Part shown: piece after piece, positions 2 to 13,809 of the stretch | Numbering within the stretch: the stretch's first letter is position 1 | How the letters are laid out: each line of letters opens with the position of its first letter | From: a virus | Reading direction: 5' to 3' (one strand) | Length of the DNA: 14,261 bases | UHGV virus genome: UHGV-0074784 | Notes under the pieces: model-generated | Seen by the model: only the letters and a program-made list of their open reading frames with translations | What the model was told of the DNA's origin: nothing | The model's database searches: none | Position numbers and translations under genes: made by a program

Positions 2-787
2 TCTTTGTCGGTAAAAGTGGTCATTATGCTCCAGCCTCCGGTGCTTTTGGCATTAACGCGTAAGGCGCGTCGCCAGGGTAACCGCAATGCGTCGAATGTT
101 TATCAGCTTAACGTTGCGAAGCTTCAGGCAGCGGCATTTTCTCAACTGTCAGATTCTGACCCGTCAAAATCTGACGCATCAAAATCTGACCCGTCAAAAT
201 TTGATGCGTCGAAATCTGGCAAAAAAGCGGGTTTTCACCCGTCAGAATCTGGCGGGGATCCGTCAGTAAAATCAAAACATGATCCGTCAGATAAAAAACC
301 TTCTCGTCCGGACGCTTCGCAACCGGACACGCAGACGGATGAACAGGATTTTTTAACTCGCCATCCTGATGCGGTTGTATTCAGCCCTAAAAAGCGCCAG
401 TGGGGAACGCAGGATGATTTGACCTGCGCACAGTGGCTCTGGAAAAAAATCATCGCCCTGTACGAGCAAGCCGCCGAATGTGACGGCGAGGTGGTTCGTC
501 CCAAAGAACCGAACTGGACAGCCTGGGCAAACGAAATTCGCCTGATGTGTGTGCAGGATGGTCGTACTCACAAACAAATCTGCGAGATGTACAGCCGCGT
601 CAGCCGCGATCCGTTCTGGTGCCGTAACGTGCTCAGCCCGTCGAAGTTGCGGGAAAAATGGGATGAGCTTTCCCTGCGCTTATCGCCGTCCGTCAGCACG
701 CACACAGAAAAACGCGAAGACCCGTACTTCAAAGCCAGTTACGACAATGTGGACTACAGCCAGATCCCGGCGGGATTCAGGGGGTGA
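2..787 (+). CDS. Phage replication protein with DnaT-like (primosomal protein I-like) C-terminal domain; 5' end probably outside the window (alternatively starts at ATG 26)
   Basis: Frame is open from the window edge to the stop at 785-787. The C-terminus ...DYSQIPAGFRG closely resembles the E. coli DnaT C-terminus (...SQIPPGFRG) as I recall it. An S/D/K-rich low-complexity linker is encoded by tandem repeats. Position upstream of the nin/RusA region fits a lambdoid replication module. Confidence 0.6.
   Translation, partial: SLSVKVVIMLQPPVLLALTRKARRQGNRNASNVYQLNVAKLQAAAFSQLSDSDPSKSDASKSDPSKFDASKSGKKAGFHPSESGGDPSVKSKHDPSDKKPSRPDASQPDTQTDEQDFLTRHPDAVVFSPKKRQWGTQDDLTCAQWLWKKIIALYEQAAECDGEVVRPKEPNWTAWANEIRLMCVQDGRTHKQICEMYSRVSRDPFWCRNVLSPSKLREKWDELSLRLSPSVSTHTEKREDPYFKASYDNVDYSQIPAGFRG
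155..214 (+). repeat. Tandem ~15-bp repeat units (TCTGACCCGTCAAAA-like), including a perfect 16-bp direct repeat (155-170 and 185-200) and a perfect 11-bp inverted repeat (173-183 and 200-210), inside the replication gene; iteron-like
   Basis: Read directly: TCTGACCCGTCAAAAT occurs twice 30 bp apart; GACGCATCAAA is the reverse complement of TTTGATGCGTC. Further CCGTCAG-containing copies follow at about 236, 259 and 281, then an A-rich stretch. Confidence 0.55.
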
Positions 788-8627: not shown

Positions 8628-9122
8628 ATGGCTGGAACGGCGGGGCGTTCCGGGCGTCGCCCCAAGCCAACGGCGCGCAAGGCGCTGGCCGGAAACCCCG
8701 GCAAGCGAGCCCTGAATAAAGATGAACCTGTTTTTACGCCCATCAAAGGTGTTGAGCCACCGGAGTGGTTCGCAGAAGAAAATCTCCCTCTCGCCACGAT
8801 CATGTGGCAACTGACAACCAAAGAACTCTGCGGTCAGGGCCTGTTGTGCGTGACTGACCTCGCGGTGCTTGAGCGGTGGTGCGTGGCCTATGAGTTCTGG
8901 CGACGTGCCGTGAAAAATATTGCCATACAGGGCAACACCATCACCGGTGCAATGGGCGGCAGGGTCAAAAATCCGGAGCTGACCGCCAAAAAAGAACAGG
9001 AGTCCGAGATGAGCAGCACGGGGGCAATGCTCGGACTCGACCCCAGCAGCCGCCAGCGTCTGATTGGCCTGGCGGGGCAGAAGAAAGCCACTAACCCGTT
9101 TCTGAAAATCATCGAGTCATGA
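8628..9122 (+). CDS. Terminase small subunit (P27-family type)
   Basis: About 165 aa with a basic N-terminus ([25 protein letters not shown]), typical of P27-family small terminases. RBS AGGAG at 8615-8619. Directly precedes the large terminase with ATGA overlap. Confidence 0.8.
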
Positions 9123-9925
9123 GCCGGAAATCTTACCCCAACGTAAATGCTGCCAATCAGTATGCCCGTGATGTTGTGCGCGGAAAGATTGTGGCCTGCC
9201 AGTTTGTGATTCAGGCCTGCCAGCGCCATCTTGATGACCTGATGGCGGAAAAAAGTAAGTCGTTTCGTTACCGCTTCGACAAGGACCTGGCTGAACGGGC
9301 TGCCAAATTTATTCAGCTGTTGCCGCACACCAAGGGGGAGTGGGCATTCAAGAGGATGCCCATCACGCTGGAGCCGTGGCAGCTCTTTGTGATCTGCTGT
9401 GCGTTTGGCTGGGTCAATAAAGGCTCCCGGCTGCGCCGCTTCCGGGAGGTGTATACCGAAATCCCCCGTAAGAACGGCAAATCGGCAATCTCTGCCGGTG
9501 TTGCCCTGTATTGTTTTGCCTGTGATAACGAGTTTGGCGCGGAAGTGTATTCCGGTGCCACGACAGAGAAACAGGCGTGGGAAGTCTTTCGCCCGGCGCG
9601 ACTGATGTGTAAACGCACACCCATGCTGACGGAAGCGTTCGGGATTGAGGTTAACGCCTCAAACATGAACCGTCCGGAGGATGGCGCGCGGTTTGAACCG
9701 CTGATCGGTAACCCCGGTGATGGTTCATCACCCCACTGTGCCGTGGTGGATGAATATCACGAGCACGCCACCGATGCGCTTTATACCACGATGCTTACCG
9801 GGATGGGCGCGCGACGTCAGCCACTGATGTGGGCCATCACCACCGCCGGGTACAACATTGAGGGGCCGTGCTACGACAAGCGGCGGGAAGTTATCGAGAT
9901 GCTCAACGGTTCGGTATGTTTCTGA
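9119..9925 (+). pseudogene. Terminase large subunit, N-terminal ATPase domain only (C-terminal nuclease domain missing)
   Basis: Walker A-like EIPRKNGKS and Walker B-like AVVDEYHE are present, but the ORF stops after 268 aa (...EMLNGSVCF). Intact large terminases of this type are roughly twice as long. Downstream sequence switches to tail-gene coding. Confidence 0.75.
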
Positions 9926-9929
9926 TGCG

Positions 9930-10715
9930 ATGAAAGTGGTGGATTCTGCCGTATCGGATGCCGCCAGGCTGTTGCAGGGGGATATCTCGGTACTTCTGCC
10001 GCCGCCATCGTCAGGCAAAAATTTCGTTGAGCAGGTGCAGAAAATGTGGCGTACCGGGAAACGCCTTTATGGTAACGCCAGCGACCTGGTCACCATGATC
10101 AAAACGCTTTCCGGTGTCAGCCTCGGCAGCGATCTGCAACCGCGCGGCGTCTGGAAAACGGACAGTAAAACCACCGCCACGGCGACGCAGCAGCGTAACG
10201 TGGTTGCCAGCACCCTTCGTACGACCGCAATCAGCGAAGCGGCGTATGCCGTCACCCGATTGCCTGCGCCAACAACTTCCGCGGTGATGCAGAATTCCGC
10301 AGTGGGGCAGGCAACAACACCCGCGCAGAGCACTGGCTGGCCTTCCATCACGCATCCGGCACTGAACAATGCACCGGCGGTGAAAAACACGGTTGACCTG
10401 CCGACGTGGGAAGAACTGACTGACATTCGCGACACACTGAATACGGCAATTGATAAGGAGTTGTCCCGTACAACCAGCGATGCGCTGTTTCTGGCGCTGC
10501 GCCGGGTGAAAGCAGATCTGAATGCGGATATCAACACGCGCCTTGAACAGTCTGCACGGATCATTCAGCGCACACCGGATGAGGTTTTACCCGCGCTGGT
10601 GCTGGCGGCGACCTGGTTTGATAACGCGGCGCGTGACGCGGACATTATCCGGCGTAATGCCATTACGCATCCCGGCTTTGTGCCGGTGATCCCTCTGAAG
10701 GTGCCAGTGCAATGA
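9930..10715 (+). pseudogene. Mu gp43/N-like tail (DNA circularisation) protein, probable C-terminal fragment left by a deletion
   Basis: ORF in a different frame from the terminase. Its stop overlaps the start of the gp44-like gene, as in intact Mu-like tail modules. The 5' part of the ORF-track frame (9858-9929) overlaps terminase coding and is probably not native. Assignment is by position and composition; weak. Confidence 0.4.
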
Positions 10716-11791
10716 ACGACAATGTCACGCTACGGGTAAATGGCCGGGAGTGGAATGGCTGGACATCGGTGCGCATCGGTGCCGGTATTGAACGGCTGGC
10801 GCGGGATTTCAGTGTGGAGATCACCCGCCAGTGGCCGGGAGATGAGGGTATCACCACGCTTCAGCCGCGCATTAAAAACGGTTCAAAAGTGGAGGTGCTG
10901 ATTGGTGATGAGCTGGTGATCACCGGCTGGGTGGAGGCGACGCCCGTTCGTTACGATGCCCGTTCGGTCAGCACCGGTATTGCCGGACGCAGTCTGACCG
11001 CTGACCTGATTGACTGTGCAGCCGAACCGACACAGTTTAATGGACGATCGCTGGTACAGATTGCGCAGGCGCTTGCTGCGCCTTTCGGCATTGAGGTGGT
11101 GAACAACGGTGCGCCGTCGGGTGTTATTCCTGATGTCCAGCCTGATCACGGTGAAACGGTGATTGAGGTAATCAACAAAATACTCGGTCAGCAGCAGGCA
11201 CTGGCTTACGACGACCCGCACGGCAGGCTGGTGATTGGCGGTATTGGCTCAACGCGGGCACATACTGCGCTGGTACTCGGGGAAAACATCCTTTCCTGCG
11301 ATACGGAGAAGAGTATCCGGGAGCGGTTTTCTGTTTACCAGGTGGCGGGGCAGCGTGCCGGAAACGACGATGATTTCGGTGAGGCCACCACCACCGCGCT
11401 GCGGGCCCGCACAGAGGACGCATTTATTGCCCGTTACCGTCCGATGTATATCAGGCAGACAGGGCAGGCTACGGGGGCAGGCTGTATTGCCCGTGCGGAC
11501 TTTGAAGCCCGACAACGGGCGGCGCGGACGGATGAAACCACCTATGTGGTGCAGGGCTGGCGACAGGGTAACGGTACGCTGTGGCAGCCCAACCAGCGGG
11601 TGATTGTCTTTGATCCGGTCTGTGGTTTCGACAATACCGAACTGCTTGTTTCGGAAGTCACGTTTACTCAGGACCAGAACGGCACCCTGACGGAAATCCG
11701 TGTCGGCCCACCTGATGCTTATCTGCCTGAACCCGAAGCCCCCAGCGCGCGGAAAAAGAAAAAAGCCAGAGTACAGGAGGACCCGTTCTGA
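10712..11791 (+). CDS. Mu gp44 (P)-like baseplate hub protein
   Basis: 359 aa; size, gene order (before gpV-like, gp46-like and J-like genes) and ATGA coupling match Mu-like baseplate modules. Lysine-rich C-terminus (SARKKKKARVQEDPF). Confidence 0.7.
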   Translation: MNDNVTLRVNGREWNGWTSVRIGAGIERLARDFSVEITRQWPGDEGITTLQPRIKNGSKVEVLIGDELVITGWVEATPVRYDARSVSTGIAGRSLTADLIDCAAEPTQFNGRSLVQIAQALAAPFGIEVVNNGAPSGVIPDVQPDHGETVIEVINKILGQQQALAYDDPHGRLVIGGIGSTRAHTALVLGENILSCDTEKSIRERFSVYQVAGQRAGNDDDFGEATTTALRARTEDAFIARYRPMYIRQTGQATGAGCIARADFEARQRAARTDETTYVVQGWRQGNGTLWQPNQRVIVFDPVCGFDNTELLVSEVTFTQDQNGTLTEIRVGPPDAYLPEPEAPSARKKKKARVQEDPF

Positions 11792-12339
11792 TGAGGACGA
11801 TTGAAGCCATGCAGCGACAACTCCTCGGCCTGATTGGGCGGGCCGTGGTGAAAAGCATCAGTGCCGCCACGAAATGTCAGACCGTGGATGTGTCCCTGAT
11901 TGCCGGTGAACCCAAAGCCGGGGTTGAACATCTTGAACCCTACGGTTTTACCTCAAGGGCAAACAGCGGTGCGGAAGCGGTGGTGTTGTTTCCGGATGGC
12001 GACCGTTCTCATGCGGTGGTTGTTACGGTGTCGGACCGGCGCTACCGCCTGAAAGGGCTGCAGACGGGTGAGGTGGCTGTCTATGACGATCAGGGGCAGT
12101 CCGTGACGCTGACCCGGGAGGGGATCGTGGTGGACGGTGCAGGTAAAACGATCACGTTTCGCAATTCACCTAAAGCGCGTTTTGAAATGGACCTGGAAGT
12201 GACCGGACAGGTGAAAGACCTGTGCGACTCCGGCGGCACCACCATGTCAGCGATGCGGCTTGCCTATAACGGCCATCGTCACAGAGAGAACGGTCAGGGC
12301 AGTAACACCGACAAACCGGATAAAGCGATGGAGGCATGA
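11791..12339 (+). CDS. Baseplate assembly protein V / Mu gp45-like baseplate spike
   Basis: 182 aa; N-terminal region (GLIGRAVVKSI...VDVSLIAGEPKAGVEHLEPYGFTSRANSGAEAVVLFPDGDRSHAVVV) is typical of gpV-like OB-fold spike proteins. Gene order supports the call. Confidence 0.75.
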   Translation: MRTIEAMQRQLLGLIGRAVVKSISAATKCQTVDVSLIAGEPKAGVEHLEPYGFTSRANSGAEAVVLFPDGDRSHAVVVTVSDRRYRLKGLQTGEVAVYDDQGQSVTLTREGIVVDGAGKTITFRNSPKARFEMDLEVTGQVKDLCDSGGTTMSAMRLAYNGHRHRENGQGSNTDKPDKAMEA

Positions 12340-12764
12340 TGGAACTGTGGCTGACGGTGAACGGTAAACGCACCTGCGCCAGCGCACCGCTGGATCCGCT
12401 GACCCGCGCCGTGGTGATTTCCCTGTTCACCTGGCGGCGGGCGGAGCCTGATGATAATGCCGACGTCCCGATGGGATGGTGGGGGGATACCTGGCCTGCG
12501 GTACAGAATGACCGTTACGGCTCCCGACTGTGGCTGCTTCAGCGCAGCAAACTGACCAATCAGCTGGTGCAGACGGTAAGGGGGTATATCCGCGAATGCC
12601 TGCAATGGATGACTGATGACGGCGTGGTGTCCCGTATTGATCTGGATATCCGCCGCACCGGGATTAATGAACTGGGTAACAGTATCACTCTCTGGCGTCG
12701 TGACGGACCGGTAATGATTTCTTTTGATGATCTGTGGAGTGCGATAACGCATGGCGGACAGTGA
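12336..12764 (+). CDS. Mu gp46-like (GP46 family, gp25/W-like) baseplate protein
   Basis: 142 aa small protein between the gpV-like and baseplate-J-like genes, with overlapping start/stop codons. Confidence 0.7.
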   Translation: MMELWLTVNGKRTCASAPLDPLTRAVVISLFTWRRAEPDDNADVPMGWWGDTWPAVQNDRYGSRLWLLQRSKLTNQLVQTVRGYIRECLQWMTDDGVVSRIDLDIRRTGINELGNSITLWRRDGPVMISFDDLWSAITHGGQ

Positions 12765-13809
12765 ATTTCAGCGCCCGACGCTGGCAGAAAATATCAGTAT
12801 GCTCCGTAACGATTTATTCGCCAGGCTGGACGTCAGCGACACGCTCCGGCGCATGGATGAAGACGTGCGGGCAAAGGTGTATGCGGCGGCGCTGCATACG
12901 GTTTACGGTTACATCGATTATCTGGCAATGAACATGCTGCCTGACCTGTGCGATGAGTCCTGGCTGGCGCGACATGCTGCGATGAAACGGTGTCCGCGCA
13001 AGGGGGCCACGGCTGCCAGCGGGTATATGCGCTGGGAAGGTGTCAGCGATGGCCTGAAGGTGACTGCCGGGAGTGTTATTCAGCGCGATGACCTGGTTCA
13101 GTACACGGCAACTGCCGATGCAACCAGCTCCGGTGGTGTCCTGCGCGTGCCGATCGCCTGCTCAAGTGCAGGTGCGGTCGGTAACGCTGACGACGGTACG
13201 GCATTAATCCTGGTCACGCCGGTGAATGGTCTGCCGTCTTCCGGTGTGGCTGACACCCTGACAGGCGGATTTGATACTGAAGAGCTGGAAACGTGGCGCG
13301 CCCGCGTCATTGAGCGGTATTACTGGACGCCTCAGGGCGGGGCTGACGGGGACTATGTCGTCTGGGCTAAAGAAGTGCCCGGCATTACCCGCGCATGGAC
13401 ATACCGTCACTGGATGGGAACGGGAACTGTCGGTGTGATGATTGCCAGCAGTGACCTGATTAATCCCATTCCGGAAGAATCAACGGAAACGGCGGCAAGA
13501 CAACATATTGAGCCACTGGCCCCGGTGGCAGGCTCTGATTTGTATGTGTTCAGGCCGGTGGCACATACGGTGGATTTTCATATCCGTGTGACGCCGGACA
13601 CACCGGAAATACGGGCTGCCATCACCGCGGAGTTGCGTTCGTTCCTGCTGCGTGATGGTTATCCGCAGGGAGAACTGAAGGTATCGCGTATCAGTGAGGC
13701 GATTTCCGGTGCGAACGGGGAATACAGCCATCAGTTGCTTGCACCGGCAGACAATATCTCCATTGCAAAAAATGAACTGGCGGTTCTGGGGACGATTTCA
13801 TGGACGTGA
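12751..13809 (+). CDS. Baseplate J-like protein (Mu gp47-like)
   Basis: 352 aa; size, composition and position upstream of the DUF2313 tail protein fit the baseplate J family. Confidence 0.75.

Follow-up and report, generated by a model that had tools for sequence, protein, structure and literature searches.

We identified an element at positions 137-340 of UHGV-0074784, a stretch of viral DNA of 14,261 nt (the whole of which is referred to as the window), that is probably the replication origin of a lambdoid replicon of the SfII/SfIV/CPS-53 type, resembling the origin of phage lambda (ori-lambda) and lying inside the linker-coding part of the initiator gene. The assignment of origin function is a prediction from sequence. 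That the same segment is a cis-acting DNA element under purifying selection is close to certain: near-frozen synonymous sites, fixed serine codons, and a frame-shifted copy of the motif in phage phiP27 indicate that the DNA itself is selected and led us to reject a pure peptide linker. The analogy with lambda rests on homology, because the protein aligns colinearly with lambda-type O and the repeat array occupies the annotated position of the origin iterons. Both position and order equal those of phage 434, since the repeats lie at codons 101-137 of the SfIV initiator gp41 and are followed by an A-rich stretch and then by an inverted repeat. An earlier note on this DNA had proposed iteron-like repeats at 149-300 within a replication gene; the repeats are there, but the conserved element is larger, covering approximately 137-340.

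The initiator gene and its repeats

The repeats lie in a plus-strand 3' remnant (53-787) of a replication gene that is homologous to SfIV gp41 and 98% identical to the SfIV/SfII gene. At its N-terminus, full-length SfIV gp41 carries a winged helix (HTH_36, residues 23-70, E = 4e-11); it is assigned to PHROG 391 'replication initiation O-like' (E = 1.6e-135) and has a C-terminal domain approximately 30-35% identical to lambda O (35% over residues 131-277 by tblastn), and BLASTP aligned its residues 70-277 colinearly with residues 78-270 of phage 434 O (E = 7e-26). The winged-helix N-terminal domain and the O-type C-terminal domain that characterize the lambda O family were both found in the full-length protein, with the window keeping codons 70-313 only. 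By these matches, the host gene is a lambda-O-family initiator and not, as the earlier note had it, a DnaT-like gene: DnaT identity was rejected, with no DnaT family matched in Pfam (E ≤ 1) or NCBIfam (E ≤ 0.1), and 'primosomal protein' is an annotation label only. A search of solved structures returned marginal MarR-type winged-helix matches only. The repeats fall between HTH_36 and the lambda-O-like C-terminus (from approximately residue 166), so that their placement in the linker-coding part of a replication gene stood, with the correction that the gene in the window is a remnant starting at codon 70. The lambda-style placement inside an O gene that the note had suggested was likewise borne out by the colinearity with 434 O.

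For comparison, the gene was collected from SfIV, Klebsiella phage 1 LV-2017, Citrobacter phiNP, Yersinia YeP2, and phiP27, and 80 loci of 3.3 kb were retrieved from species-representative GTDB genomes across Enterobacterales with the N-terminal domain as query. Synonymous identity, defined as the fraction of sequence pairs with the same amino acid that also use the same codon, was calculated over 74 homologous loci.

The basic unit of the array is a 13-bp palindrome, GTCA-N5-TGAC, starting at 148, 163, 178, 193, 208, and 241. Counted over the full 14.3 kb of the window, TCARAWTCTGAC (≤1 mismatch) had 8 matches, all within 148-253, where 0.23 were expected, and none of 200 shuffles reached that number. 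Five of the palindromes (GTCARAWTCTGAC) form a tandem array at 148-160, 163-175, 178-190, 193-205, and 208-220, with centres 15 bp apart and 2-3 variable bases between neighbouring sites; the iteron consensus, GTCARA-W-TCTGAC, was obtained from 334 units in the 74 loci. Tandem Repeats Finder reported 155-218 with a period of 15 (4.3 copies, 81% matches) and of 30 (88% matches), and a repeat search recovered 6 copies in a 15-nt register along with many inverted repeats. Every sequence feature listed in the earlier note was found at its coordinates, namely a direct repeat of 16 bp, TCTGACCCGTCAAAAT (155-170 and 185-200), a perfect inverted repeat of 11 bp (GACGCATCAAA at 173-183 and TTTGATGCGTC at 200-210), the CCGTCAG copies (239-245, 260-266, and 284-290), and the A-rich stretch (267-298).

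Between the tandem array and a distal sixth site lies an A6 run (221-227, plus strand), read from the sequence and mostly conserved in the alignment. The distal site is embedded in an extended palindrome, TTTTCACCCGTCAGAATCTGGCGGG, at 232-256, within which a 19-bp dyad, CCCGTCAGAATCTGGCGGG, occupies 238-256; most columns of the palindrome were conserved in at least 90% of 76 aligned sequences. It is the most widely conserved of the sites and is retained even with N-terminal domains that are only 52% identical. Where we looked for at least 3 repeated sites with internal dyad symmetry, the window holds six 13-bp palindromic ones. Read on the minus strand, 228-241 contains a terminator-like hairpin, CGGGTGAAAACCCG followed by CTTTTTTGCC, which is made up of the A-run together with the left side of the distal palindrome and has a stem that is poorly conserved among homologues.

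On the C-terminal side of the iterons, two GATCCGTCAG half-site repeats and the A-rich stretch (257-300, plus strand) form the proposed unwinding region. The 40 nt at 261-300 have 35% GC, the lowest value in the first 800 nt, and an AT skew of +0.46, an excess of A on the coding strand as in lambda. Synonymous identity reaches its gene-wide peak here (0.94 at codons 138-152), and most columns of GATCCGTCAGTAAAATCAAAACATGATCCGTCAGATAAAAAA, at 257-297, were more than 90% conserved among the 76 aligned sequences. Two Dam GATC sites lie 24 bp apart at 257-260 and 281-284. Within gene nt 380-540, at least 1 GATC was present in 74/74 loci and at least 2 in 68/74, against 0.58 per 160 nt elsewhere in the loci, and the D-P codon pair that reads GAC-CCN in the iterons is always GAT-CCN, creating GATC, in both downstream repeats (5/5 phages). 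DnaA boxes (≤1 mismatch) were absent from the plus strand, and the minus strand gave one 1-mismatch match.

An inverted repeat, GTCCGG-N11-CCGGAC, follows at 306-328, at the place of the palindrome right of ori-lambda, and forms part of the C-terminal module. Most loci have GGTTGC-N3-GCAACC in its place, and the homologues carry compensatory variants, with the seventh pair being C:G, G:C, or T:A and with GGTTCC/GGAACC in one locus. The order of elements in the 76 aligned sequences is the array of 15-bp units, the A-run, the extended palindrome TTTT(C/G)ACCCGTCAGAATCTGGCGGG (232-256), the GATCCGTCAGTAAAATCAAAACATGATCCGTCAGATAAAAAA segment, and the inverted repeat. An A/T-rich region on the C-terminal side of the iterons and then an inverted repeat are therefore present in the order known from lambda, with an A/T-richness weaker than in lambda. 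In 5 Providencia loci (L060, L062, L069, L075, and L076), SfIV-type iterons are combined with a lambda-like right palindrome, TCGTCGCAGAATTCTGACGA, at approximately gene nt 450-480 (compare TTCGTCAGAGAATTCTGGCGA in lambda), which implies that the palindrome travels with the lambda-O-like C-terminal module and not with the iterons.

Constraint on the DNA and inheritance with the initiator

Synonymous codon identity was 0.36-0.47 over codons 2-97, rose to 0.73-0.94 over codons 98-165, and returned to 0.50 over codons 166-175. The per-column mean was 0.42 for codons 2-97 versus 0.80 for codons 98-165 (Mann-Whitney p = 4e-21), and the boundary is sharp at codons 97/99, also where N-terminal identity falls to 52%. 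The earlier note had proposed comparing homologues for conserved DNA beneath variable protein, and this comparison favours an origin-type element; homologues that keep the peptide with synonymous-scrambled DNA, which the note had named as the contrary outcome, are clearly not what the 74 loci contain. In the subset of 41 sequences sharing the first two sites, the six-fold degenerate serine is encoded by TCA or TCT in 41/41, and the serine codons are equally fixed in the third unit, which played no part in choosing the subset; the codon between sites is free (CCG, ACA, ACG, GCA, or GGG). Across the 334 units the consensus is nnn-TCA-RAW-TCT-GAC, with G or C at unit position 9, the third base of the K/E/N/D codons, in only 1%. 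Further, one copy in phiP27, TTTGACCCTTCAGAATCTGGAC, is shifted into another frame, where it codes for VLTLQNLD and not FDPSESG. The DNA is constrained independently of the peptide that it encodes.

The earlier note had left room for the reading that the repeats only encode an expandable, flexible SKSD-type linker; the DNA repeats would then be a by-product of peptide duplication. The low-complexity segment, rich in S/D/K/P, does lie between two folded domains, xSKSD-like peptide motifs recur in it, and the number of units per locus ranges from 0 to 9 (mostly 3-7, mode 4-5), so the protein tolerates changes in length. However, linker duplication leaves the DNA conservation unexplained: synonymous identity differs as given above, serine is always TCA/TCT, the K/E/N/D codons of the unit almost never end in G or C, amino acid changes are tolerated where the DNA motif is preserved, one phiP27 copy is read out of frame, and palindromic units have no meaning for a peptide. 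We consider this explanation of the repeats hardly credible. The encoded peptide is also a length-tolerant interdomain linker, and the two readings are compatible.

High DNA identity could also mark a recently spread recombination joint between gene modules, a hidden overlapping gene, or an mRNA structure. The region is placed exactly where the exchangeable N- and C-terminal modules meet, folding of the strand is better than that of shuffled sequences (z = -4.7), and one minus-strand frame is open in 37/74 loci. Conservation is periodic, however, with 12-nt cores fixed and 3-nt spacers varying in base and amino acid, and copy number varies, which indicates selection rather than recent spread; the sharp boundary at codons 97/99, present even at 52% N-terminal identity, likewise speaks against a joint. 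No alternative reading frame was open across the region in all loci, Rfam gave zero matches across the whole window, and the fold score is expected from the palindromes. All three explanations taken together appear very unlikely, and the conservation is better accounted for by an origin-type element.

The repeats are inherited with the DNA-binding domain of the initiator and are exchanged as a module with it. Of the approximately 330 motif matches in the 80 loci, 237 are located within gene nt 300-400. One and the same N-terminal domain, with its repeats, was found joined to 4 C-terminal classes unrelated by BLAST, namely the phiNP type (56 of the 80 loci), the lambda-O-like type (14), the phiP27 type (1), and another type (2); phage phiP27, which belongs to the phage set and not to the 80 loci, is a second member of the single-locus class. 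The converse combination occurs in mEp460_4F5, which has the C-terminal domain of the window with an unrelated N-terminal domain and lacks the motif. Instead, it carries approximately five 23-bp palindromic repeats, CATCGGGTCAAAATGaCCcgATG, and its own A/T-rich stretch (L007, 1337-1513), and the mosaic junction at which window-like sequence takes over is at window position 288, just past the A-rich region. Three 12-nt repeats, TACAGAGAATAMAAC, are present in the A/T-rich stretch of mEp460_4F5, after the iterons and just ahead of the mosaic junction.

A DNA-only scan of IMG/VR with the core of the distal site, CAGAATCTGGNGGNGATCC, matched at least 120 viral contigs. Among the 120 matches listed, 115 were preceded at 382-451 nt, on the same strand, by an SfIV-type N-terminal domain (115/117 evaluable), and the remainder comprised 3 matches too near the locus edge, 1 mobile-element insertion, and 1 chance match. 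In the IMG/VR locus L181, the sequence before gene nt 375, a point inside the iteron array, has given way to a mobile element that reads as the terminal part of a transposase gene, a further route to disruption of origin and gene. Where N-terminal domains are more distant and differ in the recognition helix, the repeats were altered too, STVYGALAQ with CCTCCAGAATCTGGAGG and STVKSAIAE with GTCAAATATTGAC, a pattern that fits co-evolution of recognition helix and repeats. The iterons are specific to, and inherited with, the DNA-binding domain of the initiator, much as the N-terminal half of O and the iterons classically form one specificity unit in lambdoid origins, a description also given for P22 and L (PMC8022706).

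This co-inheritance also bears on whether the palindromes are a cis-regulatory operator array for transcription of the early-right operon and not a replication start. An operator array would agree with the palindromic form of the sites, suited to a dimeric repressor, with the conserved GATC pair, with the several genes for small DNA-binding proteins in the neighbourhood, and with the minus-strand terminator-like hairpin at 228-241; candidate binders would be the initiator itself (autoregulation), the LexA-domain protein, PerC-like YfdN, a CII-like protein, or SeqA. However, a promoter scan found no sigma-70-like promoter in 1-1400, the sites follow the N-terminal domain of the initiator while the neighbouring genes differ among SfIV, Klebsiella phage 1 LV-2017, phiNP, YeP2, and phiP27, and position, element order, and homology all match ori-lambda. 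An operator array is quite unlikely on this evidence, and a replication origin remains our preferred reading.

Comparison with known origins and a possible mechanism

That the origin can be located within the initiator gene is textbook knowledge for lambda. The arrangement proposed here, an origin within an O-family initiator gene, is already known, and the iteron family is that of a very common family of E. coli/Shigella prophages. In lambda and 434, ori-lambda consists of four 18-bp iterons, an A/T-rich region, and a 28-bp palindrome inside gene O. The 434 record annotates four gpO-binding iterons at O codons 117-145, and in lambda/434 the iterons are followed by an A-rich region and then the palindrome TTCGTCAGAGAATTCTGGCGAA. 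The element in the window shares with ori-lambda a homologous, colinear initiator, dyad-symmetric repeats at equivalent codons, the order of iterons, A-rich segment (with A on the coding strand), and inverted repeat, and the pairing of N-terminal domain and iterons as one specificity module that is exchangeable against C-terminal domains. It differs in the iteron itself (GTCARAWTCTGAC here, TCCCTCAAAACGAGGGA in lambda), in having 13-bp sites at 15-bp spacing where lambda has 18-bp sites at 20-24 bp, in its 3-7 tandem units with a separate extended site, in an A-rich region that is shorter, less A+T-rich, and sequence-conserved with two GATC sites, and in the lack of a P-type helicase loader gene after the initiator gene. 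The 15-bp spacing would place neighbouring sites on nearly opposite faces of the helix, unlike in lambda.

In phages lambda, P22, and L, the O/gp18 gene harbours iterons that differ from one phage to the next, and the origin of phage L, with six short (11-bp) imprecise repeats, was inferred from sequence alone (PMC8022706). The element in the window resembles the gene 18 origins of Salmonella phages P22 and L in having phage-specific iterons inside an O-like initiator gene, but the repeat sequences and the initiator subfamily are different, and P22 and L encode a DnaB-type helicase, gp12, beside the initiator. The Stx phages 933W and P27 have six lambda-type iterons, in which 2 extra iterons amount to 13 extra linker residues and matter for replication (PMC7466680). 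Iteron number likewise varies between relatives here, altering the length of the initiator linker, although the Stx phages have iterons of lambda sequence and near-lambda O proteins. The P27 of that paper is distinct from the Stx2e phage phiP27 (NC_003356) in our comparison, which has an SfIV-type N-terminal domain.

Iteron plasmids with Rep-type initiators, such as F, R6K, pPS10, and P1, also combine a winged-helix initiator with a repeat array beside an A/T-rich region, and GATC sites occur in P1 oriR and in oriC. Their iterons are 17-22-bp direct repeats, phased by approximately two turns of the helix and located outside the rep gene. The element shares with these replicons a winged-helix initiator, predicted binding to an array of sites near an A/T-rich region, and the GATC sites, but its palindromic sites have a 15-bp period and lie inside the gene, and there was no Rep_3-type match. 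On these grounds the element does not fit a plasmid-type iteron replicon.

Initiator binding, unwinding of the A-rich segment, a role for the GATC sites, and helicase recruitment are steps that we infer. Dimers of the initiator would bind the 13-bp palindromes through the N-terminal winged-helix domain, and the five close-packed sites with the sixth, extended site could form a complex resembling the lambda O-some. Such a complex may strain and open the adjacent A-rich segment at approximately 263-300, with its two conserved GATC sites, after which the C-terminal domain would bring in the host helicase. The S/D/K/P-rich linker of variable length would accommodate the constraint on the DNA.

Several observations weigh against an origin of this kind. 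No P-type or DnaC/DnaB-type helicase loader gene was found in the window or beside the gene in SfIV; phiP27 alone carries DnaC/DnaB-like genes. The A-rich region is short, its A+T content of only 65% is far below that of lambda, and its sequence conservation suggests a specific binding site over a simple unwinding element. Sites of 13 bp at 15-bp spacing, tighter than the 20-24 bp of lambda, may prevent full occupancy, and the covariation of recognition helix and repeats comes from few lineages only. Further, the cognate DNA-binding domain is absent from the window, and we found no binding, unwinding, or replication data on the element in the searchable literature. The origin and its iteron family were not described in the SfIV genome paper, in the annotations covered, or in the full-text literature on the motif and on yfdO/CPS-53; the SfV genome paper was outside this coverage, and an earlier description is possible.

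The iteron consensus, the element boundaries, and the linked DNA-binding domain together provide a marker for annotating the origins of a large prophage family, and the initiator/iteron variants make up a natural specificity series. With its close-packed palindromic iterons and conserved Dam sites, the element also lends itself to experimental test.

Prophage context, truncation, and possible consequences

The window belongs to a lambdoid prophage of the SfII/SfIV/CPS-53 (KpLE1)-like type, with 98% identity to the Shigella phages SfIV and SfII as well as to many phages of E. coli. DNA similar to the replication gene was found in 2,822/5,426 complete E. coli genomes, and relatives of the gene also occur in serotype-converting Shigella phages. 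Homology to the SfIV replication gene starts at window position 53, which corresponds to codon 70 of the 313-codon gp41. Positions 1-55 hold, on the minus strand, the start of a yfdT-like gene (ATG at 24-22) and the end of yfdS (94.5% identity by blastn to L002, 3001-3055). A deletion junction at approximately 53-55 fuses the minus-strand yfdT-like start to codon 70, with a 'TTA' microhomology. By comparison with SfIV, the deletion took codons 1-69, with the winged-helix domain and its recognition helix, together with the immunity region and the early-right promoter region. A similar but independent truncation, annotated 'missing N-terminus' and with its junction near window position 76, is present in other E. 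coli genomes (L002) and keeps the repeats; the complete E. coli genomes yielded this similar, different deletion only, and not the exact junction at position 53.

The predicted origin is orphaned because its cognate DNA-binding domain and the upstream early region have been deleted, and it is probably inactive in this prophage. An orphan origin could fire only with an initiator from a related co-resident or infecting phage. Orphan copies might, speculatively, act as decoys that titrate incoming SfII/SfIV-type initiators and protect the host or, separately, the invariant GATC pair might make firing dependent on Dam or SeqA; we regard these consequences as rather unlikely. Ectopic ori-lambda copies have been reported to block lambda growth (PMC4488673, PMC3349717). 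Dependence on Dam or SeqA would, if true, explain the dam gene beside the initiator gene in many relatives. A DNA adenine methylase gene lies immediately or closely downstream of the initiator gene in many of them (L003, L004, L005, L007, and the SfII record), and the origin keeps two invariant GATC sites; the methylase gene is missing from SfIV and from the window.

Most matches in PLSDB were prophages carried by large replicons, records with many errors, or circles of phage size. One plasmid record (NZ_CP148542.1, locus L089; circular, 15,977 bp) carries only lambdoid early, nin, Q, and lysis genes and recalls lambda-dv. It has a related initiator gene with the variant iterons GTCAAATATTGAC and a frameshift/stop inside the conserved GATC/A-rich segment, and may be either a genuine mini-replicon or a product of misassembly.

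Downstream of the replication gene, the window encodes PerC-like YfdN, a LexA DNA-binding domain protein, RusA, KilA-N, DUF968, Q, a holin, and a lysozyme-like protein. Beyond the lysis genes come a small terminase, a truncated large terminase, and Mu-like baseplate genes. The large terminase open reading frame (9119-9925) encodes only 268 amino acids, comprising the ATPase domain alone, and one open reading frame after it the Mu-like baseplate genes (gpP/gp44, gp45, gp46, and baseplate J) begin, at 10712-13809. From this gene order, the head and tail-tube genes seem to be gone, which would make the prophage defective at a second place. The LexA-domain protein, encoded at 1278-1604 downstream of the PerC-like YfdN homologue, has 108 amino acids and consists of a LexA DNA-binding domain without the peptidase domain.

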